64,000 nucleotides of DNA from Myxococcales bacterium (lineage in GTDB: Bacteria; Myxococcota_A; Polyangia; Haliangiales; Haliangiaceae), in NCBI GenBank assembly GCA_016707895.1, contig JADJGV010000002.1:463695-527694 (forward strand), given 5' to 3'. The notes under the pieces are model-generated. The model did no database searches and was not told the origin of the DNA. It saw only the letters and a program-made list of their open reading frames with translations. Shown here piece by piece: positions 1 through 27,353 of this stretch; positions within the stretch are counted from its first letter, which is position 1, and each line of letters opens with the position of its first letter. The translations under genes were made by a program, and so were the position numbers.

Positions 1-301
1 GTGGCCTGCGGGTCGGTCGTGACGTTGACCGCGCTGCCGAACCCAGGCTCGACGTTCGCGGGGTGGACGGGGGCGTGCACCGGCGCCGGCGCCTGCACGC
101 TGACCGCCAACGGGCCGCTGACCCTGGCGCTCGCGCGGTTCCAGTGAATCGCCGAGGGATCCGGACCGGGCGATAATTGCCCGGAATAGTAGAAAGAATC
201 TCCAGGCGTCTGGTACGTTGGCCGCTGGCTGGGGCCAGGCGTCCGCCTCCCCGGCCACGTTCGACTGTACTCGACCAAAGGCCGGTAGGAGCCCAGGCGC
301 G

Positions 302-781
302 ATGTCCAACCAACTGGTGATGTACGAAGAGGAGCTAGCGCAGATCAGCAACATCTGCGACGTGCTCCAGCGCGACTCCAACGCGAAGGCTGTCCTCGTC
401 ATCGACAAGAACGGCCAGGCGATCGCGCAGTCGGGCGAGGTCGAGCAGCTCGACGTCACGTCGCTGTCGTCGCTCACCGCGGGCAACGTGGCGGCCACGG
501 GTGGCATCGCGTCCCTCCTCGCTGAGAAGGAGTTCGCGGGGCAGTTCCACGAGGGCGAGAAGACCAACGTCCACATCTCGATCGTCGGCGCCCGCGTGAT
601 CCTGCTGGTCCTGTTCGACGAGCGCTCGTCGCTCGGCCTGGTGCGCCTGCGCGTGCGCAAGGCCGCGGTCGAGCTGACTCACGTCCTCGAGGTCCTGGTC
701 AAGAAGAGCGAGTCGGGCAACCAGCCGTCGGTCTTCGCCGAGATCACCGACGACGACATCGACAACCTGTTCAACGACTAG
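302..781 (+). CDS. mglB: MglB, Roadblock/LC7-family GTPase-activating protein of MglA
   Basis: ORF 218..781; internal ATG at 302 with GGAG-like SD about 12 nt upstream. Translation (MSNQLVMYEEE...SLGLVRLR...DDDIDNLFND) is near-identical to recalled M. xanthus MglB. Confidence 0.9.
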   Translation: MSNQLVMYEEELAQISNICDVLQRDSNAKAVLVIDKNGQAIAQSGEVEQLDVTSLSSLTAGNVAATGGIASLLAEKEFAGQFHEGEKTNVHISIVGARVILLVLFDERSSLGLVRLRVRKAAVELTHVLEVLVKKSESGNQPSVFAEITDDDIDNLFND

Positions 782-793
782 GCGCGGGGACGT

Positions 794-1381
794 ATGAGCT
801 TCATCAACTACTCGTCGCGCGAGATCAACTGCAAGATCGTCTACTACGGGCCGGGTCTGTGCGGGAAGACCACCAACCTGCAGTACATCTACAACAAGAC
901 CAACCCCGAGGCGAAAGGGAAGATGATCTCCCTCGCCACGGAGACCGACCGCACGCTGTTCTTCGACTTCCTGCCGCTGTCGCTCGGTGAGATCCGCGGC
1001 TTCAAGACCCGCTTCCACCTGTACACGGTGCCGGGCCAGGTGTTCTACGACGCCAGCCGCAAGCTGATCTTGAAGGGCGTCGACGGCGTGGTGTTCGTCG
1101 GCGACTCGCAGCTCGAGCGCATGGAAGCCAACATCGAGTCGCTCGACAACCTGCGCACCAACCTGCAGGAGCAGGGCTACGACCTCGACAAGCTCCCCTA
1201 CGTCGTGCAGTTCAACAAGCGCGACCTGCCGAACTCGGCGCCGATGGAGGAGCTGCTCGAGGTGCTGAACCCGACCAAGGTCCCGCACTACGAGGCGGTC
1301 GCGACCAAGGGCGTCGGCGTGTTCGACACGCTCAAGGCGGTGGCCAAGCTGGTGCTGACCGAGCTGCGCAAGGCCGGCTGA
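794..1381 (+). CDS. mglA: MglA, Ras-like small GTPase (motility/polarity regulator)
   Basis: 195 aa. P-loop GPGLCGKTT; sequence ([33 protein letters not shown]...) nearly identical to M. xanthus MglA. Starts 12 nt after mglB. Confidence 0.95.
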
Positions 1382-3345
1382 TGGCCGGGATCGATTTCGG
1401 AGGAGCCATGACCGCGATCGCGCATCCGCGTTTCCGTACGGATCTGGTGGCCGAGCCCATCGACGACGGCGGCAAGCGCTTCATCGACGTCGTCGATCCC
1501 GACAGCGGCAACGGCTTCCGCTTCTTCGAGATCGAGTACTCGCTGGCGTGCGCCATGGACGGCGCGCGCGACATCGCCGGCATCCAGCGCTGGGCCCGCG
1601 AGGAGCTGGGCCTCGAGCCGTCCGCCGCCGAGGTGGCGACGGTGATCTCGACGCTCGGCGACCTCGGCTATCTCGAGGGCGCCGCGACGACCAGCATCGC
1701 CGCCGACGAGCCCGAGCTGGCCCCCGGCGTGGTGGCCGCGCGCCCGACCGCGGCGCCGATGAGCTTCGGCGACGTCGAGCTGGGCACCGCCGGCGCCGCG
1801 CCGCCGCGCGCGGTCGAGGACCTGCCCGCGGTCGACGACTTCGAGCTGGGCACCGCCGGTGGCGTCGCCCACCAGCCGAGCGCCCCGTCGATCACCGACG
1901 GCCCCGAGCTGGGCCCGTCGGGCGACGCCCGCATGATGGAGTTCGACGCCCCGACGCCGCCGCCCGCGGCGATGCCGACCGCGACGATGCGGCCGAGCTC
2001 GCGGCCCGACGCCGAGGACGACGGGCCGACCAACCTGCCCAAGCCGCAGTCGATCGCCGACGAGGACGAGGTGTCGGTCGACCTGGCCGATCACCTCGCG
2101 GTGTCGGCCTCCGACGTCAAGGAGGCGGTGCGCGCCTCCAAGGTCATGCAGGCGGTCGACATCCCCAAGGACGTGCTCGACCAGCTCGAGGCCAGCGAGC
2201 AGGCGGCCCGCGACACCGCCGAGCGCGAGGCTGCGGCCCGCGAGGCCGCGGCGCGTGAGCAGGCCGCGCGTGAGGCCGAGGCCCGTGAGGCCGCGGCGCG
2301 TGACGCCGCCGCCCGCGACGCCGCGGCGCGCGAGGCTGCGGCGCGTGAGGCCGCCGCGCGTGAGGCCGCCAGCCAGGCGGCGCGCGAGCAGGCCGGCCGG
2401 CCGGTGGCGGATCTGCCGCAGATCCCGGTCGGCGTGTCGAAGAAGAAGCCCGGCGTCGACGCGCCCAAGGACGACGACAAGGTCGCGACCCCGGTCGAGC
2501 CGCCCAAGGCCGGCACCAGCAAGGCGCTGGTGTTCGTGCTGGTGCTGGTGCTGCTCCTGGCCGGCGCCTTCGTGGTCTGGACCAAGGTCCTGAAGAAGCC
2601 GCTGCCGTGGGAGAAGTCGGACGAGGGCCAGACCGCCGCGCCGACCAAGCCGACCCAGCCGACGCCGCCCACGCCGCCGCCGCCCCCGCCGCCCCCGCCG
2701 GCGCCCACCGCGGCGCTGACCGAGAAGCCGGGCGACGTGTCGAACGTCGTCGCCGGTCAGGTCGGCGTGATCGCGTTCGTCGCCGCCGACGGCGCGCAGG
2801 TCGCGGTCGGTGACGAGCTGCTGCGCTTCAGCGCGAGCTCGGCCGACGAGAAGAAGCTGACCGGCCTCGACAACGATCTGACCGTCCGCTACCCGAAGCA
2901 GCTCAAGGACGCGACCGCGGCGCGCGACAAGGCGCAGGCCGCCGCCAACGCCGGCGCGCAGAAGGCGGCCGAGGCCAAGATGGCCGAGGTGCAGAAGAAG
3001 ATCGACGCCCGCACCGCCGAGCGCGACGCGCTGCGCGCCAAGCTCGACGGCCTGACCATCAAGGCGCCGATCGCCGGCGTGGTCAAGCTCGAGGGCAACA
3101 TCGCCAAGGGCGCGCGCACCACCGCCGACCAGGCGATCGCCACCGTCACCGGCCCGGCGTCGCTGATCGCGACCTTCACCATCCCGACCGGCGGCAAGAC
3201 GTACAGCCAGGACGCGTCGGTGATGGTGTCGGCCAAGGATCAGAAGGCCAACTGCACGGCGACCTCGGTCGACGGCCCCACGGTGGTCGTCACCTGTCCG
3301 CACGACGCCGGCATCGCCGCTGGCACGATGCTGACCCTCGAGTAG
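1381..3345 (+). CDS. Hypothetical bitopic membrane protein: N-terminal cytoplasmic domain, acidic/Pro-rich region, AAREA coiled-coil repeats, TM helix, PT-rich linker, C-terminal barrel-sandwich (HlyD/biotin-lipoyl-like) domain
   Basis: 654-aa ORF whose ATG overlaps the mglA stop (TGATG), indicating translational coupling. Hydrophobic stretch ALVFVLVLVLLLAGAFVVW, PTQPTPPTPPPPPPPPPAP linker, C-terminal beta-rich region. Function not recognised. Confidence 0.7.
   Translation: MAGIDFGGAMTAIAHPRFRTDLVAEPIDDGGKRFIDVVDPDSGNGFRFFEIEYSLACAMDGARDIAGIQRWAREELGLEPSAAEVATVISTLGDLGYLEGAATTSIAADEPELAPGVVAARPTAAPMSFGDVELGTAGAAPPRAVEDLPAVDDFELGTAGGVAHQPSAPSITDGPELGPSGDARMMEFDAPTPPPAAMPTATMRPSSRPDAEDDGPTNLPKPQSIADEDEVSVDLADHLAVSASDVKEAVRASKVMQAVDIPKDVLDQLEASEQAARDTAEREAAAREAAAREQAAREAEAREAAARDAAARDAAAREAAAREAAAREAASQAAREQAGRPVADLPQIPVGVSKKKPGVDAPKDDDKVATPVEPPKAGTSKALVFVLVLVLLLAGAFVVWTKVLKKPLPWEKSDEGQTAAPTKPTQPTPPTPPPPPPPPPAPTAALTEKPGDVSNVVAGQVGVIAFVAADGAQVAVGDELLRFSASSADEKKLTGLDNDLTVRYPKQLKDATAARDKAQAAANAGAQKAAEAKMAEVQKKIDARTAERDALRAKLDGLTIKAPIAGVVKLEGNIAKGARTTADQAIATVTGPASLIATFTIPTGGKTYSQDASVMVSAKDQKANCTATSVDGPTVVVTCPHDAGIAAGTMLTLE
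2215..2400 (+). repeat. In-frame tandem 15-nt (Ala-Ala-Arg-Glu/Asp-Ala)n coding repeat, about 12 units
   Basis: Nucleotide periodicity gcggcccgcgaggcc/gcggcgcgtgaggcc; encodes AAREAAAREQAAREAEAREAAARDAAARDAAAREAAAREAAAREAA. Confidence 0.8.
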
Positions 3346-3428: not shown

Positions 3429-3644
3429 ATGGCCAAGCTGACCGGTACGATCCAGAAGAGCGACCTCGAGGGAGGCCACTGGTTGCTCGTCACCGCCAAG
3501 GGCGAGCAGTACCAGCTCGTCGGCGCCAAGGGCGTCAAGGCCGGCCAGGAGGTCGTCGTCGAGGGCACCGTCGACCGCGGCGCGATGGGCATCGGCATGA
3601 CCGGCCCGACGTTCACGGTGAAGAAGATCTCGCCGAAGAAGTAG
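3429..3644 (+). CDS. Small conserved hypothetical protein (71 aa)
   Basis: ORF with strong GC3 bias; protein-like sequence MAKLTGTIQKSDLEGGHWLLVTAKGEQYQLVGAKG... No obvious SD. Confidence 0.45.
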   Translation: MAKLTGTIQKSDLEGGHWLLVTAKGEQYQLVGAKGVKAGQEVVVEGTVDRGAMGIGMTGPTFTVKKISPKK

Positions 3645-5447: not shown

Positions 5448-6308
5448 TCAGCGGGTCTGGGGATCGATCGCGTCGCGCAGGCCGTCACCCAGGAAGTTGA
5501 GCGCGAAGATCGTCAGGCCCATGGCCAGGCCGGGCCCGGCCAGCACCCACGGCGACACCGCCACCTGGGTCGAGCCCTCGGTGACCAGGGTGCCCCAGGA
5601 CGCCAGCGGCGCCTGCACGCCGAGGCCGATGAACGACAGGAAGGTCTCGGTCAGCATCGCCTGCGGGATCAGCACCGTCGCGTAGACCACGACGGTGCCG
5701 AGCGTGTTGGGGATGACGTGGTAGAGGACGATCCGCGCCGGGCTGGCGCCGATCGCGCGGGCGGCCTCGATGAACTCGCGCTGGCGCAAGGACAGCACCT
5801 GGCCGCGGACGATGCGCGCCATCGTCAGCCACGACACCGCGCCGATCAGCGCGAACAGCGACACCAGGCTGTGGGTGTCGAACACCGCGCGGATCACGAC
5901 GACGAAGACGATCGTCGGGAAGCCGTACATCACGTCGACGACGCGCATCATCACCGCGTCGACCCGGCCGCCGGCGTAGCCCGCGATCGCGCCCCAGGCC
6001 ACGCCGATCACCAGCGCCACCGCGGTCGCGGTCAGCCCGACGACGATCGCGATCCGGCCGCCGACCAGCACCCGCACCAGCAGGTCGCGGCCGAGGTTGT
6101 CGGTGCCCAGCGGGTGCGCGGCCGACGGCGGCGCCGCCAGCAGCTCGAGGTCGAGCGTCGTCGCGTCGAGCCCGAACCAGCCGCACACCACCGGGCCGAC
6201 GAAGCAGGCGAGCGCGATGACCGCGAAGCCGATCAGGCACGCGAACGCCATGCGGTTCTTGCGCAGCCGCCGCCACGCCTCGCGGCCGAGCGAACGCGGC
6301 GCGCTCAC
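5448..6308 (-). CDS. ABC transporter permease, OppC/DppC family
   Basis: C-terminal 286 aa of ORF 5448..7244. N-terminal WRRLRKNR motif, multiple TM segments, EAA-like loop. Inferred GTG start overlapping the oppB-like stop (GTGA). Confidence 0.8.
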   Translation of the reverse strand: MSAPRSLGREAWRRLRKNRMAFACLIGFAVIALACFVGPVVCGWFGLDATTLDLELLAAPPSAAHPLGTDNLGRDLLVRVLVGGRIAIVVGLTATAVALVIGVAWGAIAGYAGGRVDAVMMRVVDVMYGFPTIVFVVVIRAVFDTHSLVSLFALIGAVSWLTMARIVRGQVLSLRQREFIEAARAIGASPARIVLYHVIPNTLGTVVVYATVLIPQAMLTETFLSFIGLGVQAPLASWGTLVTEGSTQVAVSPWVLAGPGLAMGLTIFALNFLGDGLRDAIDPQTR

Positions 6309-7231
6309 GCGGCGCGCTCGCTGTGGCGGATGCGCGGGTCGATCCAGCCGTAGGCCAGGTCGACCAGCAGGTTGAACAGCACGAGGAAGCCGACGTAGAA
6401 GACCAGGAGGCCGGTCAAGACCGGGTAGTCGCGGCTGGTGACGCTGTCGACGAAGTAGAAGCCCAGCCCCGGGATCTGGAAGATCTTCTCGACGACGAAC
6501 GAGCCGCTGATGAGCCCCGCGGTGGCCGGCCCGAGGTAGCTCACCACCGGCAGGAGCCCGAGCCGCAGCCCGTGCCGCCACACGACGCCGCGCTCGCTCA
6601 CGCCCTTGGCCCGCGCGGTGCGGATGTAGTCGGCGCCCAGCGTCTCGATCATGCTGGCCCGCGCCAGCCGCGCGATCGTGCCGGCGTAGATCAGCCCCAG
6701 CACCGCCGCCGGCGCCAGGTAGCCGACGACGCCGTCGGCGCGCGCCGCCGGCACCCAGCCCAGCTCCAGCGCCAGGTAGCGGATCGCGATCGGGCCCAGC
6801 ACCAGCGACGGGATCGAGATGCCGATCAGCGCGACGCTCATCGCCGTGTAGTCGACCCAGGTGTTCTTGCGCGCCGCCGCCAGCACGCCGAGCAGCGTGC
6901 CGAACACCGCGGCGAACCCGATCGCCATCAGCCCCAGCGTCAGGCTGTACGGGAAGTGCCGCTTGATGATCGCGCCGACGGTCTCGGGCCGCTTCATCGA
7001 GTGGCCGAGGTCGCCGCGGGCCAGCCCGCTCATGTAGCGCCCGTACTGCTGCCACAGCGGATCGTGGAGGTGGTAGCGGTCCTCGATGTTGCGCTGCACC
7101 GCCGGCTGCAGCCGCCGCTCGCGCGAGAACGGCCCACCCGGCGCCGCGTGCAACAGCAGGAACGTGATCGTCGCGACCGCCGCCAGCACGGCGACGCCGC
7201 CGGCCAGGCGACTCACGATCAGGCGCAGCAC
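6305..7231 (-). CDS. ABC transporter permease, OppB/DppB family
   Basis: 308 aa; MLRLIVSRLAGGVAVLAAVATITFLL..., typical OppB topology and EAA loop (ETLGADYIRTARAKG). Confidence 0.85.
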   Translation of the reverse strand: MLRLIVSRLAGGVAVLAAVATITFLLLHAAPGGPFSRERRLQPAVQRNIEDRYHLHDPLWQQYGRYMSGLARGDLGHSMKRPETVGAIIKRHFPYSLTLGLMAIGFAAVFGTLLGVLAAARKNTWVDYTAMSVALIGISIPSLVLGPIAIRYLALELGWVPAARADGVVGYLAPAAVLGLIYAGTIARLARASMIETLGADYIRTARAKGVSERGVVWRHGLRLGLLPVVSYLGPATAGLISGSFVVEKIFQIPGLGFYFVDSVTSRDYPVLTGLLVFYVGFLVLFNLLVDLAYGWIDPRIRHSERAA

Positions 7232-7287
7232 GCGCGGCGATCATCGATCCGCGCGCGGCGGATGTCCATCGACGGCGGCGCGCGCGA

Positions 7288-7848
7288 TCAGAACGTGCCG
7301 ACCACGGCGACGCCGGCGCGGCCGGGCGCGAGCTGCGGCGCGAGCGTCACGCGGGTCGCGGCCGCGCGGTTCATCCGGGCGGCGCGGCCGGGCGCGGTCA
7401 GGATGTCGTCGATCGTCCCGGCGGCGTAGGCGGCGACGCCGAGGACCGCGATCGTCGGCCCCACTGGCGACTCCTCGCACGGCTGGGGCGCGAACAGCCC
7501 GCAATCGGAGAACGCGATCATCGCGCCGGTGAGGGTCGCCACTACGCCCAGGGTGCGCACGCCCAGGCCGCGGGTGAACAGCTCACCGGTATACAGGTGG
7601 CCGGCCGACGGTCCCACGTACGCCATCATCAGGCCCGCCGTCATCAGCACGTCGTTGTCGGGGCGGACGGCGACCGTGGCGACGCCGGCGGCGGTGACGC
7701 CGAGCGACAGCGCCAGCGCGGTCCCCTCGCTGTAGCGATCGCCGGTCGTCGGCGCCGGCTCGGCCGCCGGCGCGGACTGTGCGCGGGCGAGGGCGGGGAT
7801 GGCGAGGGTAGCCAGGGCGGCGACGACAGCGAGGCGAGTCATGCCCAC
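7288..7848 (-). CDS. Putative small outer-membrane beta-barrel protein
   Basis: 186 aa, signal peptide MTRLAVVAALATLAIPALARAQ, alternating hydrophobic strands, C-terminal ...VAVVGTF (aromatic terminal residue typical of OMP beta-signal). Lies inside the ABC operon. Confidence 0.5.
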   Translation of the reverse strand: MGMTRLAVVAALATLAIPALARAQSAPAAEPAPTTGDRYSEGTALALSLGVTAAGVATVAVRPDNDVLMTAGLMMAYVGPSAGHLYTGELFTRGLGVRTLGVVATLTGAMIAFSDCGLFAPQPCEESPVGPTIAVLGVAAYAAGTIDDILTAPGRAARMNRAAATRVTLAPQLAPGRAGVAVVGTF

Positions 7849-7967
7849 GGCATCTGCATCGGTCGGGCCAGTAAAGTTGCCCAGTGATTCAGCATGGTTG
7901 CCAGGGTGTACGTGTCAGCCGCTCGCCAGCGTCCGGTGATGTTTCGACGCCGCCCCGCGCTCACCCG

Positions 7968-10166
7968 TCAGCGCCGCTGCCGCCAGTCGGGATCGCGCCA
8001 GGCCCGCCACAGCGACGGCTGGGCGAACAGGTTCCCTGGTAGGCCGCGCACGTAGGGGCGCTGCAGGCGCTTCTGCGTGTAGACGAACATCGGGATGATC
8101 GGCGCCTCGTCGACCAGGATCGCCTCGGCGGCGCGGACCTTGGCCAGCCGCGCGGCCGGGTCGGTCATCTGGGCCGCCTCGTCGAGCAGCGCGTCGAACG
8201 CCGGGTTGCACCAGGCCGGGCGGTTGTTGGGGCTGCCACAGCGCCAGATGCGCACGAACTCGACCTCGGGATCGGGCGCGGTGCCGATCCAGCCGAGCCG
8301 CGCCACCTGGTACTCGAGCTGCCGGGTGTCGTTCAGGAACACCTGCCACTCCTGCTGCTCGAGCCGCACGCCGATGTGCAGCACGTCCTGCCACTGCGCC
8401 TGGATGTACTCGCTGATCAGCTTGTGGGCCTCGAAGCCGATGTTGAACTTGTAGACGATCTCCTTCGGGAAGCGATCGCCCATCTCGGCCTTGGCCTGGG
8501 CCAGCTCGGCCCGCGCGCGCGCCGGATCGAACTCGAGGCCGGGCGGCGGCACGTAGCAGAGCTTGCCGCGCTCGATCACCAGCGCGACGCCGGGCGTCGA
8601 CCGCGTGACGCCGCACGCGCGCAGATCCTCGTCGGACAGGCTGGCGATCGGGGTGCCCGGCGTGTAGCTCGCGACGCCGATCTCGCCGCCGCGCAGGAAG
8701 CCGGCGATGCGCGAGCGATCGAGCGCCAGCGTCAGCGCCCGCCGCAGGTGGACGTTGTCGAAGCGCTTGGTGTTGACCACCGCGAAGTAGGTGCCCAGGT
8801 ACGGCGCGACGGTGTAGTCGCGGTACGGCTTGCCGTGGTTGCCGGTCGACAGCGCCGCCAGGTACGACTGCGGGATGTTGTTGGCGGCCAGCGCGTCGCA
8901 CACGCCGGTGAAGTAGAGGTTGGCGCTGGCCGCCTGCTCGTCGATCGACAGCACGGTCAGGCGGTCGAGCTTGACCTCGGCGGGGTCGCGGTAGGTCGGC
9001 GAGCGCACCAGCGTCAGGTGATCGCGCGGCGCGTGCTCGGCCAGCCGCATCGGCCCCGATGACACGATCGTCGCCGGCGCGGTCCAGGTGCGCGGGTGGC
9101 GCGACACCGCGGCGCGCGGGGTCGGCCGCATCGCCCGCGACGCGCCGGTCGCGACGATCGACGGCGTCGGATCGCTGGCCTCGACCACCAGCGTCTGGGC
9201 GTCGAGGACGCGGACGCCGAGCACCTCCGGGAGCATCAGCAGGTCGGCGTTGGTGACCTCGACCTCGGCGCGCGGGCGCGCGGCGTCGGCCTGCAGGTCG
9301 GCCCACGCGCCGTCGCGGCCGGGCACGTGCTTGGCGGCCACCGGCGCCACGCGCACGCGGTGCTCGGCGGTGGGCGCGCCGTCGAGCTCGTCGGCCGGCA
9401 CCCAGCCGTAGACGCCGAGGCCGTGATCCCAGTGGACGTAGGCCCAGGTCCGGGCGTCGGGGTTGGGCAGCGTCGCGGGGCGGCCGCTCAGCTCGATGAT
9501 CGTGACCGCGGCGCGGGGCGGCACGGTGGCGTAGGCGGCGCCCGCGTCGGCGCCGAGATCGCGCAGCCGCAGCGGGCGGCTCGCGGTGCGCTGGTTGGGA
9601 TCGGGCGGCGCGGCGTCGCCCCAGTCGGCCAGCGGCTTGCCGTCGACCGCGACGACCTCGACGATCGTGCCGGCCGGCAGCCCGCCGGCGTCGCGCACCA
9701 GCACCCGCGCGCGGTTCTCGAGGTACGCGAGGTTGTTCTTCAGCCAGTCGAGCGAGTCGGCGTTGACCGACGCCGTCAGCGGGTGCAGCACGCGCACGAG
9801 CTGGTAGGCGACGTCGTAGGCCGTGAGCGGGCGGCCGTCGCTCCACCGCGCCTCGGGCCGCAGGTGGAACGTCACCCGGCGCTGATCGGGCGCGACCTCC
9901 CACCGGCTGGCCAGCCCCGCGACCGGCAGGCCGTCGTCGCCGAACACCAGCAGGCCATCGAACAGCGCGTACATGATCGGCGTGACCGTCGTCGACTGGC
10001 CCTCGGCCGGGTCGAGGCTGTCGGGCTCGCCGCTGTTGCACCAGGTCAGCGTGTGCGGGTCGTCGACCGCGGGCACCTTGCCGAAGTACTCGCTGTCGGG
10101 CAGGCCGCAGCCGATGGCGGCGGCCGTAGCGAGCGCGGCGAGCGTGGTAAGGTGGCGGCGCGTCAT
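7968..10166 (-). CDS. ABC transporter substrate-binding lipoprotein, family 5 (peptide/nickel, OppA/DppA-like) with a large insertion
   Basis: ORF 7968..10268; internal start MTRRHLTTLAALATAAAIGC (lipobox). SBP_bac_5-like N- and C-terminal regions (...PDSLDPA..., ...YTQKRLQRPYVRGL...) flank about 250 aa of extra sequence. Confidence 0.8.
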   Translation of the reverse strand: MTRRHLTTLAALATAAAIGCGLPDSEYFGKVPAVDDPHTLTWCNSGEPDSLDPAEGQSTTVTPIMYALFDGLLVFGDDGLPVAGLASRWEVAPDQRRVTFHLRPEARWSDGRPLTAYDVAYQLVRVLHPLTASVNADSLDWLKNNLAYLENRARVLVRDAGGLPAGTIVEVVAVDGKPLADWGDAAPPDPNQRTASRPLRLRDLGADAGAAYATVPPRAAVTIIELSGRPATLPNPDARTWAYVHWDHGLGVYGWVPADELDGAPTAEHRVRVAPVAAKHVPGRDGAWADLQADAARPRAEVEVTNADLLMLPEVLGVRVLDAQTLVVEASDPTPSIVATGASRAMRPTPRAAVSRHPRTWTAPATIVSSGPMRLAEHAPRDHLTLVRSPTYRDPAEVKLDRLTVLSIDEQAASANLYFTGVCDALAANNIPQSYLAALSTGNHGKPYRDYTVAPYLGTYFAVVNTKRFDNVHLRRALTLALDRSRIAGFLRGGEIGVASYTPGTPIASLSDEDLRACGVTRSTPGVALVIERGKLCYVPPPGLEFDPARARAELAQAKAEMGDRFPKEIVYKFNIGFEAHKLISEYIQAQWQDVLHIGVRLEQQEWQVFLNDTRQLEYQVARLGWIGTAPDPEVEFVRIWRCGSPNNRPAWCNPAFDALLDEAAQMTDPAARLAKVRAAEAILVDEAPIIPMFVYTQKRLQRPYVRGLPGNLFAQPSLWRAWRDPDWRQRR

Positions 10167-10386
10167 GGACGAGTTTCGTTGTCCCCGCTGCGGGAGCTTC
10201 GCCGCCGAGCGCTCGGAGTCGCGGTTCGCGGCCTTCACCATGGTCGAGATGAACTGCCGCGGATGCAAGCTCTACGAGGAGCGACGCAGCGACGCCGCCG
10301 ACTTCGCCGCGTTCAAGGACCGCTGGCGGGGCCGGCCGCAGATCCCGATCTACGACTACTACGACGACCTGGTCGACGTCGACTGA
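10165..10386 (+). CDS. Small zinc-ribbon protein (73 aa)
   Basis: M65 of ORF 9973..10386: MDEFRCPRCGSF...MNCRGCKLYEE, a CxxC...CxxC motif. Stop overlaps the start of the next gene (TGATG). Confidence 0.5.
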   Translation: MDEFRCPRCGSFAAERSESRFAAFTMVEMNCRGCKLYEERRSDAADFAAFKDRWRGRPQIPIYDYYDDLVDVD

Positions 10387-12602: not shown

Positions 12603-13217
12603 ATGCAGCCGCCTGGTCCGCCTGGTCCGCCCGCTGGTCCGCCGCCGCCGGGGTATCCGCCGCCGGGGTATCCGCCGCCGGGGTATCCGCCGCCGCCGCC
12701 GGGGTACGGCTATCCGCCGCCGCCGCGCAAGGCTTCCCTGCTGTGGCTCTGGATCCTGCTCGGCGTTCTCGGCGGGCTGATGGTGGTCGGCATCCTGGCC
12801 GCGATCGCGATCCCGTCGTTCATGAAGTACCAGCAGAAGTCGAAGCGTAGCGAGGCCGAGCTCAACCTCAACGCCATCGAGAAGGCGGCGAACATGGTCT
12901 ACGCCGAGACCGCCGCGTTCCCGCCCGGCACGGCGGGGCGGACGCCCGCGACGTCGTGCTGCGCCGACCCGACGCGGCGGTGCCAGCCCGATCCGATCGC
13001 GTGGCAGGGCGAGCCGTGGGCCACGCTCGACTTCGAGATGGTCTCGCCGCACTTCTTCCAGTATACGTACGCCGGCGCCGCCGACGGTCAGAGCTTCACG
13101 GCGACGGCGATCGGGGACCTCGACTGCGACGGCAACGAGGTCGTCTACACGCTGGTCGGGCGCGTCGTCGGGGGCAGCCCGTCGTTCGAGCTGGTGCCGC
13201 CCACCGGCCGGGACTGA
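12603..13217 (+). CDS. Pilin-like bitopic membrane protein with PPGY-rich N-terminal tail (paralog 1 of 3)
   Basis: N-terminus MQPPGPPGPP...GYPPPGYPPPGYPPPPPGYGYPPPPRK, TM LLWLWILLGVLGGLMVVGILAAIAIPSF, which matches the type IV pilin alpha1 core (ILAAIAIPxF) but lacks the G|F(T/S)LIE prepilin-peptidase site. Cys pairs CC..C and DLDCDG. Confidence 0.75.
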   Translation: MQPPGPPGPPAGPPPPGYPPPGYPPPGYPPPPPGYGYPPPPRKASLLWLWILLGVLGGLMVVGILAAIAIPSFMKYQQKSKRSEAELNLNAIEKAANMVYAETAAFPPGTAGRTPATSCCADPTRRCQPDPIAWQGEPWATLDFEMVSPHFFQYTYAGAADGQSFTATAIGDLDCDGNEVVYTLVGRVVGGSPSFELVPPTGRD

Positions 13218-13250: not shown

Positions 13251-13853
13251 ATGCAGCCACCTCCTCCAGGCGCGCCGCCGGGCGGCTATCCACCGCCGGG
13301 CTATCCACCGCCGGGGTATCCGCCGCCGCCGGGCTACGGCTATCCGCCGCCGCCCCGGAAGCGGTCGCTCTTGTGGCTGTGGATCGTGCTCGGCGTGGTC
13401 GGCGCCGGCCTGGTGATGGTCGCGATCCTGGCGGCGGTCGTGGTGCCCAAGGCCGACGAGTACGTGGAGCGGTCCAAGCGCATCGAGGCCGAGCTCAACC
13501 TCCACGCGATCGGCAGGGGCGCGAAGGTCGGCTACGAGGAGACCGGCCGCTTCCCCGAGGGCGACGCCGCGTTGACGCCGGCCGCCTCGTGCTGCGAGGG
13601 GCCGAACCACAAGTGCGCGCCCGACCCGGCGCTGTGGCGCGGCGAGCCGTGGGAGTCGATGTACTTCGAGATGAACCGGCCGCACTACTTCCGGTACTCG
13701 TACCGCGCGTCGGCCGACGGCCAGAGCTTCACCGCCACCGCCGTGGGCGACCTCGACTGCGACGGCGAGGAGGTGGTGTTCACGGTCACCGGCACCGCCG
13801 TCGGCGGCAATCCGGAGCTGTCGGAGGTCGTGCGGCCGACCAACCGCGACTGA
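13251..13853 (+). CDS. Pilin-like bitopic membrane protein with PPGY-rich N-terminal tail (paralog 2 of 3)
   Basis: 200 aa with the same architecture (PPGYPPPGYPPPGYPPPPGYGYPPPP, LLWLWIVLGVVGAGLVMVAILAAVVVP, ASCCEGPNHKCAPDPALW, DLDCDGEE). Confidence 0.75.
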   Translation: MQPPPPGAPPGGYPPPGYPPPGYPPPPGYGYPPPPRKRSLLWLWIVLGVVGAGLVMVAILAAVVVPKADEYVERSKRIEAELNLHAIGRGAKVGYEETGRFPEGDAALTPAASCCEGPNHKCAPDPALWRGEPWESMYFEMNRPHYFRYSYRASADGQSFTATAVGDLDCDGEEVVFTVTGTAVGGNPELSEVVRPTNRD

Positions 13854-13885: not shown

Positions 13886-14464
13886 GTGCAGCCAGGGCCG
13901 CCACCGTCGCCGTCGGGGTATCCGCCACCGGGCTACTACCCGGGGTATCCGCCGCCCGGCGGTCCGCCGCGACGGTCGTCGCTGCTGTGGCTGTGGATCA
14001 CGCTGGGCGTCGTCGGCGCGGTGGCCGTGATCGGCGTGCTGGCCGCGATCGCGATCCCGTCGTTCGTCAACTACCAGCGCAAGGCCAAGGCCGTCGAGGC
14101 CGAGCTCGAGCTGCGGCGGATCGGCCACGCGGCGATCATGTACTTCGACGAGCACGGCCGGTTCCCCGCGGCCGCGGCCGGCCCGACGCCGGCGACGCCG
14201 TGCTGCGCCGGACCTGACCACAAGTGCGCGTCGGTCATCGACGACTGGGCCGCCGAGCCGTGGCGGACCCTCGGCGTCACGATGCTCGAGCCGCACCGCT
14301 ACCAGTACACGTTCACGCCGGGCGCCGATGGCAGCTCGTTCACGGCGACGGCGATCGGCGACCTCGACTGCGACGGCGACGCGTCGGTGTTCACGCTGAC
14401 CGGCACCGCGGTCGGCGGGGCGGCCCGGCTCGACGAGGTGGTCCGGCCCGCGCACATCGACTGA
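13886..14464 (+). CDS. Pilin-like bitopic membrane protein with PPGY-rich N-terminal tail (paralog 3 of 3)
   Basis: 192 aa; GTG start. PSGYPPPGYYPGYPPPGGPP, LLWLWITLGVVGAVAVIGVLAAIAIPSF, ATPCCAGPDHKCASVIDDW, DLDCDGDASV. Confidence 0.75.
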   Translation: MQPGPPPSPSGYPPPGYYPGYPPPGGPPRRSSLLWLWITLGVVGAVAVIGVLAAIAIPSFVNYQRKAKAVEAELELRRIGHAAIMYFDEHGRFPAAAAGPTPATPCCAGPDHKCASVIDDWAAEPWRTLGVTMLEPHRYQYTFTPGADGSSFTATAIGDLDCDGDASVFTLTGTAVGGAARLDEVVRPAHID

Positions 14465-18457: not shown

Positions 18458-19267
18458 ATGGGTATCCGCGCGGCGTCTGTGGTGGTGATCCTCGGATCGC
18501 TGGCTGGTTGTCCTCACCAGGACGAGGATCCGATCATCGACGCGCCGCTCACCTGCGACCCGGTCGACGACCAGAACCCGTGCACCCTCGACGAGTGCGA
18601 CGGCCCGACGCCGATCCACACGCCGCGCACCGGCGCGAGCTGCACCGGCGGCACCTGCACCGCGCAGGGCACCTGCACCGGCGACACCTGCGGCGACGGC
18701 GACGTCACCGGCGTCGAGCAGTGCGACGATCAGAACACCACGCCGGCCGACGGCTGCAACGCGCAGTGCCGCACCGAGCCGAGCGAGCGCGAGCCCAACG
18801 ACGACGGCACGCCGAACGAAGGCATGGGCTCGGTCGACCCCGGCGGCAACGACTTCGACGCGACCGCGGTCACCAACGCCAACGCGCAGGCCGCGCAGGT
18901 GCCGCTCGACGTCGCCAGCGGCGCGCTGCTGAGCGTGCTGGCCGCGATGAGGCCGCCCGGCGACGAGGACGTGTTCGCGGTGACCAACAGCGGCGCCGCG
19001 CCGCGCGCGGTGAAGTTCGACGTCTGGCTGCGCCTGGCGACGTTCGGCTACGGCCGCTCGTGCGGCATCACGATGGACGCCAGCCTGACCATCCGCGACG
19101 CCGCCGGCGCGATCCTCGCGCAGAACGACGACCGCAACCCGAGCAGCGACCGCTGCCCCGGCCTGACCTACACCGTCGGCGCCGGCCAGACCGTCTACGC
19201 CCAGGTCGTCGAGTACGGCGACAACACGCTCGTGAACTCGTACGCGATCACGTTCGAGCCGATGTAG
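18458..19267 (+). CDS. Secreted lipoprotein with myxobacterial Cys-rich repeat (DUF4215-like) and a pre-peptidase-C-terminal-like domain
   Basis: Lipobox ILGSLAGC; repeat TCGDGDVTGVEQCDDQNTTPADGCNAQC; C-terminal beta-rich domain. Confidence 0.7.
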   Translation: MGIRAASVVVILGSLAGCPHQDEDPIIDAPLTCDPVDDQNPCTLDECDGPTPIHTPRTGASCTGGTCTAQGTCTGDTCGDGDVTGVEQCDDQNTTPADGCNAQCRTEPSEREPNDDGTPNEGMGSVDPGGNDFDATAVTNANAQAAQVPLDVASGALLSVLAAMRPPGDEDVFAVTNSGAAPRAVKFDVWLRLATFGYGRSCGITMDASLTIRDAAGAILAQNDDRNPSSDRCPGLTYTVGAGQTVYAQVVEYGDNTLVNSYAITFEPM

Positions 19268-23044: not shown

Positions 23045-23824
23045 TCAGAGGAGGACGACGGTGGGGATGAGCGCGATCAGCGAGTCGCGCGCGCGCTCGG
23101 CGTTGGCCTTGCTCGCGTAGACCTCGCTGGTGCCGATGACCTGGCCGTTGGTCGCGGTCAGGTTGAGGTACGCGCCGCCGTTGCTCGAGGCGAGCACCTG
23201 GTAGCGGGCGGCGCTGGCGCCGTTGTCGAGGACCGCGAACGCGCCGTTGAGCGCGGCGGCCTCGCTGTCGTAGCGCTCCGAGCGCAGCACGATCGCGCCG
23301 TTGCCGGCGTGGAGGTTCCAGTAGTGCTTGCCGCCGGCGTCGAGGTGGATCGCGAAGCGGCGCCCGGTCGCGGTGGCCCACGCGGTGCGGTAGGTGCTGA
23401 CCGCGCCGACCGTGGCGGTCAGCGTCGCCTGCGCGGCGGCGGCGGTCGCCTGGACGCCGCTGGTGCCGATGAGCTCGCCGTTGACCGCCTTGAGGGTCAC
23501 CAGCGCGCGACCGTCGGTGGTCGGCTTGACCTCGTACCGCGCGGCGGTGGCGCCGTTGCTCAGCACCGACAGCAGGCCGGTCAGCGCGGCGGTGCGGCTC
23601 GAGTAGCCCTCGGAGGTGAGCAGCAGCGCGCCCTTGGCGTCGACCAGGCGGAACCGGAACTGCGCGTCGCTGCTCTTCCACAGCGCGAACGACGGGCGGC
23701 TGGAGGTGTCGGCCCAGGTCAGGGCCTCGGAGGTGTCGGCGGTGTCGACGGTCGACTCGTCCACGCAGCCGGCGGCGGCGGTGGCGAGCATCAGGGCGGT
23801 GAGGGCGGTCAGCAGGCGGCGCAT
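23045..23824 (-). CDS. Lipoprotein with four tandem YegP/DUF1508 (UPF0339) repeats
   Basis: Internal start M53 of ORF 23045..23980 (MRRLLTALTALMLATAAAGC). Four repeats of the form FxxxLxxxNGxxxxxSExYxSxxAAxxGxxxV. Confidence 0.75.
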   Translation of the reverse strand: MRRLLTALTALMLATAAAGCVDESTVDTADTSEALTWADTSSRPSFALWKSSDAQFRFRLVDAKGALLLTSEGYSSRTAALTGLLSVLSNGATAARYEVKPTTDGRALVTLKAVNGELIGTSGVQATAAAAQATLTATVGAVSTYRTAWATATGRRFAIHLDAGGKHYWNLHAGNGAIVLRSERYDSEAAALNGAFAVLDNGASAARYQVLASSNGGAYLNLTATNGQVIGTSEVYASKANAERARDSLIALIPTVVLL

Positions 23825-23841
23825 GGTTGCGTCGCCATTCA

Positions 23842-23857
23842 GCAAGGTCGGGGCCAG
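23842..23857 (-). promoter_or_regulatory. Candidate sigma-54 (-24/-12) promoter for the YegP-repeat lipoprotein gene
   Basis: Minus-strand sequence cTGGCCCCGACCTTGCTgaatggcgacgcaaccATG matches TGGCAC-N5-TTGCW spacing (GG and GC correctly placed). The start codon is only about 17 nt after the -12 element, so the leader would be very short. Confidence 0.35.
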
Positions 23858-24053
23858 CTGGAAGATGCTGTAAGTACCTGCAACTCCTTCATGCTTGAGG
23901 CCTCGTTTGTTGCTGCATCGACGCGACAATAGAGTCCATGCAACATGTGTTGCATCGGCGCACCAAGTGGAATTCCGCACGCGCGGCGCGGTGGGGCGTC
24001 GCGGGTCGGCGCCCTGAGTCGCCCGTGTTGCTCAGGGCGAGTACGATGCGGCA

Positions 24054-27000
24054 ATGCGGGCTCGCTGGCTGTGTCCTACCGTGGCGCTCTGGGTGGCGGC
24101 GTGCGGTCCGTCCGACGGGCCCAACCGGCCGCCGACGGTGGCCGGCAGCCCGGCGACCACCGCGGAGGACGCGCCGGTGACGATCGCGGTCACCGCCGCC
24201 GATCCCGACGGCGACACGCTCGAGTACCGCTACGCGACGCCGGCCCACGGCACCGTGACCGGCAGCGGCGCGTCGTTCATCTACACGCCCGTGGCCGACT
24301 ACCACGGCACCGACGCGGTGACGGTGACGGTGCTCGACGGCGAGGCCCAGGCGACCGCGACGATCTCGATCACGGTGACGCCGGTGAACGACGCCCCGGC
24401 GGTCGCCCCCGATACGCTGGTCGCGCTCGAGCACACCGCGCTCGACACCCCGCTGACCACGCTGCTGAGCAACGACGTCGACGTCGACGGCGACCCGCTC
24501 GCGGTCACCGCGGTGGCCACCGCCTCGACCGGCACCGCCGTCATCGTCGGCGATCAGGTCCGCTACACGCCGCCGGCGGGCTTCCTGGGCGCCGCGACCT
24601 TCGACTACACGGTGTCGGACGGCCAGGCCACGGGCACCGGCACGGTCACGGTCAACGTCACCGCCGTCGACGATCCCCCGGTCGCCGGCGACGACGCCGC
24701 GACCACCGTCGAGGACACCGCGCTGCCGCTGACCGCCGCGTCGCTCTTGGCCAACGACACCGATCCCGAGGGCGGGGCGCTGTCGCTCACCGCGGTCGGC
24801 AACGCCACCAACGGCACCGTCGCGCTCGCCGGCACGACGGTCACGTTCACGCCGGCCGGCGACTTCAACGGCAGCGCGAGCTTCGAGTACACCGTCTCCG
24901 ACGGCGTCGGCGCCGACACGGCCACCGTGACCGTGACGATCACCGGCGCACCCGACGCCCCGGTCGCCATCGACGACGCGATCACCGCGACCGAGGACCA
25001 GCCGGCGACGCTCATCGCTGCGACGCTGGCGGCCAACGACACCGACGCCGACGGCGACGCGCTGACGGTGACCGCCGTCGGTGCGCCGAGCGGCGGCGCG
25101 GTGGCGCTGGTCGGCGGCACGATCACCTTCACGCCGGCGCCCAACCTCACCGGCACCGCCGGCTTCGACTACACCGTGTCCGACGGCGCCCGCACCGACG
25201 TCGGCCACGTCACGGTCACGGTGGGCGCGGTCCCCGACGCCCCGGTCGCCGGCGACGACACCGCCACGGCCGCCGAGGACACGCCGCTGGCCATCACCGG
25301 CGCGACGCTGACCGCCAACGACGTCGACGTCGACGGCCCGGCGCTGACGGTGACCGCGGTCGCCGGCGCGGTCCACGGCGCCGTGGTGCTGACCGGCGCG
25401 ACGATCACCTTCACGCCCGACGCCGACTACGTCGGCCCCGCCGGCTTCGACTACACGGTCTCGGACGGCGCGCTCAGCGACGTCGGCCACGTCGCGATCA
25501 CCGTGACGCCGGTGAACGATCCGCCGGTGGCGGTCGACGATGTCGCGACCACCGCCGAGGACACCCCGCTGGCCCTGGCCGGGGCGACGCTGGCGGCCAA
25601 CGACACCGACGTCGACGGTCCGGGCCGCACGGTGGTCGCGGTCGCCGCGCCGCAACACGGCACCGTGGCGCTCGCCGGCGGCACCGTGACGTTCACGCCC
25701 GAGGCCAACTACGTCGGCCCGGCGGCGTTCGACTACACCGTGTCCGACGGCAGCTTGGTCGACGTCGGCACCGTCGCCGTCACGGTCACGCCGGTCAACG
25801 ACGCGCCGGTGGCGGTCGCCGGTAGCGCCACGACCAACGAGGCGACGCCGGTGGTGATCACGCTGACCGCCACCGACCTCGACTCACCGAGCGTCACGTT
25901 CACGCCGGCGGCGCCGTCGGTGGGCGCGCTCGGCGCGGTCACGCCGGCGGGGCCGTTCAGCGCCACGGTCACCTTCACGCCGCCGCTCGGCTTCGACGGC
26001 ACCGCGACGTTCGCCTTCACCGCGTCGGATGGCGCGCTGACGTCGGCGCCAGCGACGATGGCGATCACCGTCGTCAACGTGCCGGTGTGCAACGACGGCC
26101 TGGTCGAGGGCAGCGAGGGCTGCGACGATCAGGGCAACGCCGCCGGCGACGGCTGCTCGCCGACGTGCGCGGTCGAGGTCGGCTGGACCTGCGCCGGCGC
26201 CCCCAGCGCGTGCGACGAGATCTGCGGCGACGGCATGATGGTCGGCGCCGAGGCCTGCGACGACAACAACCTGATCAGCACCGACGGCTGCACCGCGCAG
26301 TGCGTGCTCGCGCCGCCGTGCGACGGCGCCCGCTTCCCGGGCGGCGACCGCTTCGCCACCAACCCGACCACCGGCGCGTGCTACGTCGGCTTCGACGACG
26401 ACCTCGACAGCCAGGCCGCCGCGCAGGCCGCTTGCGTGGCGGGCGCCGGCCACCTGGCGACGATCACCAGCGCCTTCGAGCAGGGCCTGGTGACTGCGGC
26501 CGCCAGCGACGCCCAGAATCCGTGGATCGGCGCCACCGACGACGCCAACGACACCGACGCGGTCTTCGCGTGGGTGACCGGCGAGCCGTGGGGCTTCGCC
26601 AACTTCGCGCCGGGCCAGCCCGACGACGACGTCGGGGTCGGCGGCAACGGCGAGTGCCTGCACCTGCTCAACGCCGCCGGCCAATGGAACGACACCAACT
26701 GCGCCGCCACCGGCTTCGTGGTCGGCCGGGTGTGCGAGTACGAGCCGCGCTGCGGCGACGGGGTGATCCAGCCGGCGCAGAGCGAGACCTGCGACGACGG
26801 CAACAGCGTCAGCTTCGACGGGTGCTCGGCCACCTGCCGGGTCGAGACGCTGTTCTTCAGCGAGTACGTCGAGGGCTCCGGCGGCACCAACAAGGCGGTC
26901 GAGATCGCCAACCCGTCGCTGACCCCCCGCAACCTGACCGGTTGCTCGCTGCGGCTGTACACCAACGGCTCGCCGACCCCGAGCAACACCGTCGCGCTCA

Positions 27001-27353
27001 CCCAGACGATCGCCGGCGGCGACGTGCTGGTGGTGTGCAACCCGTCGTCGGTCGCCGCGATCCTGGGCCAGTGTGACCTGCAGAGCAACGCGGTGGCCAA
27101 CTGGAACGGCGACGACGCGATCGAGCTGTTCTGCGGTAGCGCCAGCGTCGACGTGGTCGGGCGAGCTCCGGCGTCGATCCGGGCGCGCTGGGGCACCGCG
27201 CCGACCTCGACGCTCGATCAGACGCTGCGTCGCAAGTGCTCGGTGAGCGTCGGCGACGCCAACGGCACCAACGCGTTCAACCCGGCGACGGAGTGGACCA
27301 GCCTCGGCACCAACGTGTTCACCGACCTCGGCGTCCGCTCGTGCAGCCCCTAA
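24054..27353 (+). CDS. Large surface lipoprotein: about seven tandem 95-aa cadherin-like/Ig-like repeats, Cys-rich repeats, C-type lectin domain, C-terminal lamin-tail domain (LTD)
   Basis: 1099 aa; lipobox ALWVAACG. Repeat consensus ...ATTxEDTPLxxxxAxLLANDTDxDGDxLTVTAV...GTVAL.GGTVTFTP...FDYTVSDG...VTVTVTPVNDAPVA. CTLD signature (WIGATD...WVTGEPW...GECLHL...WNDTNC). LTD-like C-terminus (ETLFFSEYVEGSGGTNKAVEIANPS...). Confidence 0.85.
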   Translation: MRARWLCPTVALWVAACGPSDGPNRPPTVAGSPATTAEDAPVTIAVTAADPDGDTLEYRYATPAHGTVTGSGASFIYTPVADYHGTDAVTVTVLDGEAQATATISITVTPVNDAPAVAPDTLVALEHTALDTPLTTLLSNDVDVDGDPLAVTAVATASTGTAVIVGDQVRYTPPAGFLGAATFDYTVSDGQATGTGTVTVNVTAVDDPPVAGDDAATTVEDTALPLTAASLLANDTDPEGGALSLTAVGNATNGTVALAGTTVTFTPAGDFNGSASFEYTVSDGVGADTATVTVTITGAPDAPVAIDDAITATEDQPATLIAATLAANDTDADGDALTVTAVGAPSGGAVALVGGTITFTPAPNLTGTAGFDYTVSDGARTDVGHVTVTVGAVPDAPVAGDDTATAAEDTPLAITGATLTANDVDVDGPALTVTAVAGAVHGAVVLTGATITFTPDADYVGPAGFDYTVSDGALSDVGHVAITVTPVNDPPVAVDDVATTAEDTPLALAGATLAANDTDVDGPGRTVVAVAAPQHGTVALAGGTVTFTPEANYVGPAAFDYTVSDGSLVDVGTVAVTVTPVNDAPVAVAGSATTNEATPVVITLTATDLDSPSVTFTPAAPSVGALGAVTPAGPFSATVTFTPPLGFDGTATFAFTASDGALTSAPATMAITVVNVPVCNDGLVEGSEGCDDQGNAAGDGCSPTCAVEVGWTCAGAPSACDEICGDGMMVGAEACDDNNLISTDGCTAQCVLAPPCDGARFPGGDRFATNPTTGACYVGFDDDLDSQAAAQAACVAGAGHLATITSAFEQGLVTAAASDAQNPWIGATDDANDTDAVFAWVTGEPWGFANFAPGQPDDDVGVGGNGECLHLLNAAGQWNDTNCAATGFVVGRVCEYEPRCGDGVIQPAQSETCDDGNSVSFDGCSATCRVETLFFSEYVEGSGGTNKAVEIANPSLTPRNLTGCSLRLYTNGSPTPSNTVALTQTIAGGDVLVVCNPSSVAAILGQCDLQSNAVANWNGDDAIELFCGSASVDVVGRAPASIRARWGTAPTSTLDQTLRRKCSVSVGDANGTNAFNPATEWTSLGTNVFTDLGVRSCSP
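24130..26010 (+). repeat. Tandem coding repeats of about 285 nt (95-aa domain), about seven units, inside the adhesin gene
   Basis: Periodic protein repeats visible in the translation; generate long shadow ORFs on both strands. Confidence 0.8.

Follow-up and report, generated by a model that had tools for sequence, protein, structure and literature searches.

A third gene behind mglBA in one myxobacterial clade encodes a periplasmic-adaptor-family protein with an RRE-like head

We describe here a third gene that directly follows the polarity genes mglB and mglA in a 64,000-nucleotide stretch of DNA (the window) from a Myxococcales bacterium of the family Haliangiaceae (GenBank assembly GCA_016707895.1, contig JADJGV010000002.1, forward-strand positions 463,695 to 527,694). 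This gene, referred to below as gene 3, encodes a periplasmic-adaptor-family protein with the head of a RiPP recognition element (RRE; RiPPs are ribosomally synthesized and post-translationally modified peptides), and it is fixed in the mglBA operon of a single myxobacterial clade, comprising the Haliangiales (Kofleriaceae and Haliangium) and a sister group of uncultured Polyangia. Its product is predicted to be a bitopic inner-membrane protein in which the RRE-like domain is followed by a linker, one transmembrane (TM) helix, and a periplasmic-adaptor-like domain. Polarity in myxobacterial motility is governed by MglA as the master switch, and the reading we favor, with a probability of roughly 45%, is that the mglBA operon has in gene 3 a lineage-specific third cistron, whose co-expressed product is an envelope-spanning partner of the MglA/MglB switch. 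An earlier note on this DNA suggested that such a protein might be an envelope anchor or effector of MglA, and we retain that suggestion as a hypothesis.

Organization of the locus

The three genes are co-directional on the + strand and tightly packed. mglB (159 aa; 302..781) encodes the Roadblock/LC7 GTPase-activating protein (GAP) of MglA, as judged from its Pfam Robl_LC7 match and the length of its homologues, and is separated by 12 nt from mglA (195 aa; 794..1381), which encodes the Ras-like polarity GTPase and was identified by phmmer against 6hjh_A. Gene 3 (1381..3345), defined through its homologues and a structural model, has a predicted product of 654 aa if translation begins at ATG 1381, or 645 aa if it begins at ATG 1408. 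The GC content at third codon positions (GC3) is 0.93 for mglB, 0.98 for mglA, and 0.96 for gene 3, as in real genes of this genome. The earlier note began mglB at a TTG at position 218, but this merely gives the longest open reading frame (ORF); because the homologues in related loci are 159-160 aa long and an AGGAG at 287-291 ends 10 nt before ATG 302, we place the gene at 302-781 and favor the ATG as its start.

The MglA protein is 83.1% identical to M. xanthus MglA (6hjh_A) across all 195 residues (phmmer E 2.3e-108), and its translation contains the P-loop GPGLCGKT at residues 19-26 together with R53, T54, and the segment T78-V-P-G-Q82. We take several of these features to be diagnostic of MglA, namely Thr78 where DxxG usually has Asp, Arg53 as the intrinsic arginine, Gln82, and the P-loop form GxxxxGKT. 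MglB shares 58.9% identity with its M. xanthus counterpart (6h5b_B) and matches Pfam Robl_LC7 (PF03259) with an E value of 9.8e-12; against the NCBIfam MglB model, a Thermus-type equivalog, it scores 75.7, under the cutoff of 200. Describing the pair as near-identical to that of M. xanthus is thus fair for MglA but overstated for MglB. MglA is 87-99% identical among the loci that carry gene 3, and seven MglB positions differ in genomes with gene 3, differences that would most simply reflect phylogeny.

At the boundary between mglA and gene 3 the sequence TGATG is present, in which the A of the mglA stop codon (TGA, 1379-1381) is shared with an in-frame ATG at 1381. The overlap is therefore as first described, but the start of gene 3 is ambiguous in that a second in-frame ATG lies at 1408, preceded by a GGAGGA that ends 3 nt before it. 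This downstream codon is the start called in a public protein that is 99% identical (P0001), while other members of the 90% cluster of P0001 are called at 654 aa, the length that results from the overlapping start. A close relative (L088) lacks the overlapping ATG and retains the arrangement GGAGGA-N3-ATG. From the P0001 call and from L088 we consider the downstream start to be no less likely than the overlapping one in this sub-lineage; whichever ATG is used, gene 3 begins no more than 26 nt from the mglA stop codon.

High-GC DNA is prone to yield long spurious ORFs, and one of 671 aa, antisense to gene 3 at 1288-3303, was rejected as such an artefact. The same explanation for the 654-aa frame has negligible probability and can be regarded as already refuted: its GC3 of 0.96 is accompanied by a second-position value (GC2) of 0.53, confident folds are predicted for two of its domains, and we have collected 320 homologues, all of ~560-740 aa, in which full-length relatives extend down to ~30% identity.

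Gene 3 is invariably linked to mglA

The distribution of gene 3 was examined with a gene 3 profile run on 80 reference mglA loci, one genome per species. In 15 of these loci a co-directional homologue is the next gene after mglA, and none was found at any other place in the 80. The positive loci are all from Kofleriaceae, 'Polyangia', and 'Myxococcales' metagenome-assembled genomes, and their MglA proteins are at least 87% identical to that of the window. Six look-ups begun at gene 3 rather than at mglA gave the order mglB-mglA-gene3 in all seven loci recovered, and a scan of metagenome sequence placed mglA directly upstream of gene 3 in 76/76 contigs with upstream room, three further contigs being without such room and one without the N-terminal domain. 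Comparison of orthologous loci was the check by which the earlier note proposed that its suggestion be judged, and the linkage withstands it: gene 3 is linked to mglA in all of ~98 informative loci, with no unlinked orthologue among them. The linkage is also kept across two subfamilies of gene 3 (types I and II, described below) despite N-domain identity of ~40% and much lower identity in the C-terminal domain.

Outside this clade the position after mglA is occupied differently, and gene 3 is not found there in Cystobacter, Corallococcus, Sorangium, Minicystis, Nannocystis, Anaeromyxobacter, Labilithrix, or Sandaracinaceae. The description of the M. xanthus operon as mglBA only agrees with the M. 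xanthus-type loci sampled (Cystobacter and Corallococcus), which have mglBA alone at this position. We note that two Cystobacter loci (L051 and L076) contain a gene of ~149 aa located 108-109 nt after mglA, cyclic-nucleotide-binding-like by eye, which may be a different lineage-specific neighbor of mglA.

Overlap of the type seen in the window recurs throughout the family. Among 21 loci examined in detail, 10 have an in-frame stop/start overlap at the mglA-gene3 junction and the others have gaps of 3-60 nt; a simple check that ignores reading frame finds an overlap-type junction in 64 of 91 loci, compared with the ~5% that we estimate from base composition for a 1-nt overlap. The structure of the junction favors coupled translation of mglA and gene 3, as far as this can be read from sequence. 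One public protein (P0260; 898 aa, on a 4.05-Mb contig) has both Robl_LC7 and adaptor domains and could be taken for a Rosetta-stone fusion of MglB, MglA, and gene 3. We rejected it as a frameshifted long-read miscall because out-of-frame stretches separate its MglB, MglA, and type II gene 3 parts, and it supports adjacency only.

Wider synteny and its bearing on the linkage

The gene order across the clade is recR-mglB-mglA-gene3, followed by a DUF5818 gene and an SLT gene. Of 57 loci, 54 have recR upstream of mglB and the other three have lost it; in most related loci mglB is preceded by dnaX-ybaB-recR. The recR-mglB adjacency is also present in about half of the myxobacterial loci without gene 3 and reaches many other Myxococcota; we know of no functional meaning for it. 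On the other side, 40 of 43 loci have a DUF5818 homologue downstream of gene 3, and three have lost it. This gene is mostly on the opposite strand, convergent with gene 3 and beside a gene for a TPR-SLT lytic transglycosylase, and an SLT gene is near DUF5818 in most loci with sufficient downstream sequence. Occasional departures from the common order include the insertion of two M16 peptidase genes between recR and mglB (L086) and a different downstream gene after gene 3 (L002).

These patterns raise the question as to whether the adjacency of mglA and gene 3 is simply inherited synteny, gene 3 being a general envelope protein, possibly acting with DUF5818 and TPR-SLT, that landed beside mglA in the ancestor of the clade. 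The breadth of the recR-mglB adjacency and the persistence of DUF5818 and SLT behind gene 3 are both expected if this is so, as is an MglA without clade-specific change. Such an origin nonetheless appears rather unlikely to us as the whole explanation, since most loci have mglA and gene 3 overlapping or just a few nucleotides apart, as is characteristic of a single translational unit, whereas the recR-mglB gaps are 71-250 nt; moreover, DUF5818 and SLT are mostly on the opposite strand, and the lineage of the window has lost the flanks with mglB-mglA-gene3 intact. The mglA-gene3 junction is lost in no locus, unlike the recR or DUF5818 flanks.

The rearrangement in the window lineage is extensive. 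recR, dnaX, and SLT are all absent from the whole 64 kb, but the block mglB-mglA-gene3-DUF5818 is kept and seems to have been relocated as a unit. At positions 1-146 lies the end of a gene for an unrelated protein (C-terminus ...GWTGACTGAGACTLTANGPLTLALARFQ). The DUF5818-like gene of the window (71 aa; 3429..3644, +) starts 83 nt after gene 3 and is co-directional with it, a + strand orientation that it shares with seven other loci; its Pfam DUF5818 match has an E value of 2e-5 and 24.5 bits, relative to a cutoff of 27, and nothing informative was matched in the PDB or NCBIfam. The gene could be a fourth member of the block. We also considered DUF5818 as a ligand of the RRE or as a RiPP precursor and judged this unlikely, given its membership of a Pfam family of unknown function, its usual position on the opposite strand beside SLT, and its lack of informative matches.

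Domain organization of the gene 3 product

Searches of Pfam and NCBIfam with the gene 3 product give only sub-threshold HlyD/RND_mfp matches and low-complexity noise, and the layout described here is based on an alignment of 32 homologues and an AlphaFold2 model. The N-terminal cytoplasmic domain (residues 14-100; 1420..1680, +), which the earlier note left unassigned, is modeled as three strands followed by three helices, a winged-helix arrangement to which a fold search assigns the PqqD-like fold of RREs. The fold search was needed because sequence profiles were insignificant: Pfam PqqD (PF05402) has a best E value of 0.12 and matches just 3 of 19 sequences, so that by sequence the domain does not belong to that family, and a PDB profile search with the domain recovered only insignificant centrin matches. 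When the domain was used as a profile against 1.84 billion representatives there were 626 matches, of which the best 150 all belong to this same family. The invariant and nearly invariant residues gather on strand 3 (F46, R47, F48) and helix 3 (V88, I89, T91, L92, L95, G96), and in co-crystal structures of RREs with leader peptides the leader is bound at the strand 3/helix 3 surface. RREs are modules dedicated to peptide binding, and that of gene 3 may likewise bind a peptide.

The long acidic and proline-rich region that follows corresponds to a linker that is disordered in the model (residues 101-227; 1681..2061, +; predicted local distance difference test score, pLDDT, <50). Within it are three conserved D/G-x-ELG-x-x-G motifs (residues 131-135, 153-157, and 175-178) and a DGPTNLP motif; L134, G135, L156, G157, and G178 are invariant or nearly so in the 32 sequences, and 101 of 120 homologues have 2-4 ELG-like motifs. 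After the linker comes a highly conserved cytoplasmic helix motif (residues 228-262; 2062..2166, +; ...VSVDLxDHLxxxxxDVKEAVRASKVMxAVDxP), which contains DVKEAVRASKVM and has 12 invariant positions (S232, L235, D245, V246, E248, A249, V250, R251, S253, M256, V259, P262).

Next is a long single helix of AAREA-type repeats (residues 263-337; 2167..2391, +), modeled with a pLDDT of ~90. The program TRF reports a period of 15 nt with 9.8 copies at 2223-2369, and the protein has ~12 A-A-R-E/D-A units, the number originally counted. The segment had been described as a coiled coil, and its helical character is borne out, but it is a poorly conserved spacer with the repeats confined to close relatives; other homologues have a different low-complexity sequence in its place. 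Because the AAREA period is five residues, a single alpha-helix fits better than a heptad coiled coil. The helix has weak low-complexity matches to TolA (residues 270-335) and HC2.

The remainder of the protein is as the earlier note read it, on the evidence of hydropathy, the model, and Foldseek. Residues 381-402 (2521..2586, +) are the only hydrophobic segment and form the sole predicted TM helix (Kyte-Doolittle mean of 3.04 in a 19-residue window, together with a model helix). They are followed by a Pro/Thr-rich linker (residues 403-440; 2587..2700, +) that has low pLDDT, is P-rich in all homologues, and would be periplasmic in the predicted topology, and then by a periplasmic adaptor fold (residues 441-654; 2701..3342, +; pLDDT 85-96). 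In the latter, a lipoyl/barrel-sandwich domain is combined with an alpha-hairpin (34 + 33 residues) and a short beta domain at the C-terminus, in which two cysteines (C625 and C639) are invariant. Foldseek aligns residues 441-654 with TMexC, AcrA, MexA, MacA, and EmrA in the PDB (E values of 1e-12 to 1e-8, probability 1.0).

Two subfamilies and the exporter alternative

Gene 3 homologues fall into two types, both located directly after mglA. Type I, found in the window and in Kofleriaceae and Haliangium, is ~600-700 aa long and has the RRE, the ELG motifs, the helix motif, and the spacer helix; it has no membrane-proximal domain, the window protein ending after four short strands (residues 613-653) and so being without the complete beta-barrel and membrane-proximal domains of a pump-docking adaptor. 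Type II, from uncultured Polyangia, is ~480-550 aa long and has the RRE, a shorter disordered linker without the ELG and helix motifs, and a complete adaptor, which TIGR01730 matches end to end (E 2e-21) and in which PF25967, PF25989, and PF25975 are present. Because type II has both the RRE and a complete adaptor behind mglA, the common ancestor was probably an RRE-TM-adaptor protein already located there, and the shortening of the periplasmic part and the elaboration of the cytoplasmic one in type I probably came later.

An alternative explanation for gene 3 is that it is the adaptor of a tripartite exporter whose pump (ABC, RND, or MFS) and channel are encoded elsewhere, with the RRE capturing the leader of a secreted peptide much as HlyD uses its cytoplasmic N-terminus to sense HlyA, and with the position behind mglA reflecting shared expression or history. 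The fold of the periplasmic domain is that of AcrA, MexA, MacA, and EmrA, type II matches RND_mfp throughout and keeps the C-terminal domains used in pump docking, RREs in solved structures are almost only binders of leader peptides, and a number of public copies bear the names of HlyD or RND adaptors. Periplasmic adaptors are normally encoded with their pump, however, and no pump (ABC, RND, or MFS), outer-membrane or TolC-like channel, peptidase, RiPP enzyme, or precursor-peptide gene lies beside gene 3 in the window or in the seven other loci inspected with 4-6 kb flanks, although the partners could be elsewhere. Type I is also without the membrane-proximal domain used for pump docking, and the sequence scores of the window protein are below family cutoffs (31.8 bits, cutoff 94.9, for TIGR01730 RND_mfp; 20.6, cutoff 22.2, for Pfam HlyD_3). 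Nor does an exporter role explain the invariant and often overlapping junction with mglA. We therefore consider it unlikely, while regarding it as the main competitor.

The rates of evolution within type I are a further feature for which an exporter role does not account. Mean pairwise identity is 0.68 in the RRE and 0.69 in the helix motif, compared with 0.34 in the periplasmic domain, so that these cytoplasmic modules are about twice as conserved; in the first disordered linker and the spacer helix it is 0.37 and 0.26. The slow evolution of the cytoplasmic modules fits a very conserved cytoplasmic partner, as MglA, at 87-99% identity, would be.

Relationship to known systems

The gene 3 product has recognizable parts in common with four groups of proteins but the combination is distinct from each. 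Like the adaptors AcrA, MexA, MacA, EmrA, and HlyD, it has a lipoyl domain interrupted by an alpha-hairpin, with a beta domain after it, and it is anchored by one N-terminal TM helix; unlike them, the type I protein of the window has neither a membrane-proximal domain nor adjoining pump or channel genes, and it has a 380-residue cytoplasmic region, an N-terminal RRE, and two invariant periplasmic cysteines. AcrA has no cytoplasmic region, and that of HlyD is ~60 residues. Relative to the RREs with which we compared it (TfuB1, TbiB1, PqqD, and the N-terminal domains of NisB, LynD, MibB, and TigE), the gene 3 domain differs in being fused to a membrane protein in a GTPase operon with no RiPP enzyme or precursor nearby. 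The spacer resembles single alpha-helix spacers and TolA domain II in being an unbroken Ala/Glu/Arg-rich helix of ~75 residues with i to i+4 acid-base pairs, and it differs from TolA domain II in being cytoplasmic, in preceding the TM helix, and in varying in sequence and length among homologues.

The closest parallel is to GltJ of the Agl-Glt gliding machine, which has a periplasmic domain of the TonB type. Both proteins are bitopic in the inner membrane (by prediction for gene 3), and in both a small peptide-binding domain at the N-terminus is followed by a long, disordered linker with short conserved motifs, a TM helix, and a periplasmic domain. The N-terminal modules are different, however, being ZnR and GYF in GltJ and an RRE in gene 3 (Pfam finds no ZnR or GYF in the gene 3 product); the periplasmic domains differ too, and GltJ is not encoded in the mglBA operon. 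Because the domains are unrelated, the likeness is one of architectural analogy and not of membership. In GltJ a motif in the disordered linker binds MglA-GTP in competition with the protein's own ZnR domain, which then recruits MglB (PMC11135422).

A recent account lists the MglA effectors as SgmX, GltJ, AglZ, MreB, and RomRX, all from M. xanthus (2026; PMC13408092), and a 2014 survey of prokaryotic Ras-like GTPases describes the neighborhoods of group 1 mglA genes as ones that 'vary widely' and names no such gene (PMC4316618). Our literature search for an RRE-adaptor fusion or a link between MglA and an adaptor found nothing. The public copies of gene 3 that we have seen are annotated as 'hypothetical protein', 'biotin carboxyl carrier protein', or a generic HlyD/RND adaptor.

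A possible role in the polarity switch

If gene 3 is a partner of the MglA/MglB switch, its product would be made together with MglA and inserted in the inner membrane with the N-terminus in and the C-terminus out. The RRE, the linear motifs of the disordered linker, and the helix containing DVKEAVRASKVM would then form the interface to the switch, with the RRE clamping an extended peptide, perhaps an ELG motif of the protein itself or the tail of a binding partner, for example MglB. Binding of MglA-GTP could alter the state of the RRE-peptide complex, by analogy with GltJ of M. xanthus and its ZnR domain and linker, and the spacer helix and TM segment could relay the change to the periplasmic lipoyl/hairpin domain. 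That domain may contact or assemble an envelope structure, and gene 3 would in this manner serve the polarity GTPase as an anchor or effector in the envelope.

A more explicit version of this scheme can be formulated in which an RRE has been recruited into small-GTPase signaling, holds either its own ELG motif or the acidic C-terminal tail of MglB, and is competitively displaced by MglA-GTP, and in which the change crosses the membrane to a pared-down adaptor domain that assembles or gates a polar trans-envelope structure. This would constitute a new class of MglA effector, built into the mglBA operon, but we regard the full set of propositions as decidedly improbable.

Several observations weigh against a partnership of gene 3 with the switch. 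MglA residues specific to the gene 3 clade were sought and none found. The AlphaFold2 model has no linker motif docked on the RRE. Judged by sequence, type II is a complete, ordinary-looking adaptor of the RND/ABC type that is without the ELG and helix motifs, from which it follows that the ancestral job of the protein may have been transport. The linkage itself could be partly a matter of inheritance, as the whole region is syntenic in the clade and the recR-mglB adjacency is equally old and in fact ancient; the adjacency is for these reasons weaker evidence than it appears. Finally, no terminator-like sites were found on the + strand between positions 1 and 4200, as co-transcription of the three genes would predict, but terminator and promoter scans are weak tools in high-GC myxobacteria.

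Other genes in the window

No motility-machine or pump genes were found near the locus in the rest of the window. Three tandem ORFs of ~200 aa (12603-13217, 13251-13853, and 13886-14464, all +), located 11-13 kb downstream of mglA, have N-termini of the pilin/pseudopilin type and match NCBIfam PilA_Myxo and GspG, in all cases below cutoff. They may be tandem pilin paralogues, and none was seen in the related loci inspected. A 1099-aa protein encoded at 24054-27353 (+) contains seven Big_9/cadherin-like repeats, a C-type lectin domain, DUF4215 repeats, and a lamin-tail domain, and a second DUF4215 protein is encoded at 18458-19267 (+); both are probably surface adhesins. A gene at 23045-23980 (-) encodes a 311-aa protein with three DUF1508 repeats (E 2e-41).

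On the opposite strand at 5448-10268 (-) is an Opp/Dpp-type peptide ABC transport system, recognized by eye, with two permeases and a family-5 solute-binding protein. As an importer it is no candidate partner of the adaptor-like domain, nor is it conserved at the related loci.

Implications

Gene 3 adds a new candidate to the partners of MglA. An order-level clade in which mglBA has a third and often translationally coupled gene provides a testable candidate for the wiring of a GTPase to the envelope outside the model species. The fusion of an RRE to an adaptor suggests either that there are substrate-sensing adaptors or that RREs have been reused outside RiPP pathways, and genome mining that treats RRE folds as markers of RiPP biosynthesis could be misled by the gene 3 family.

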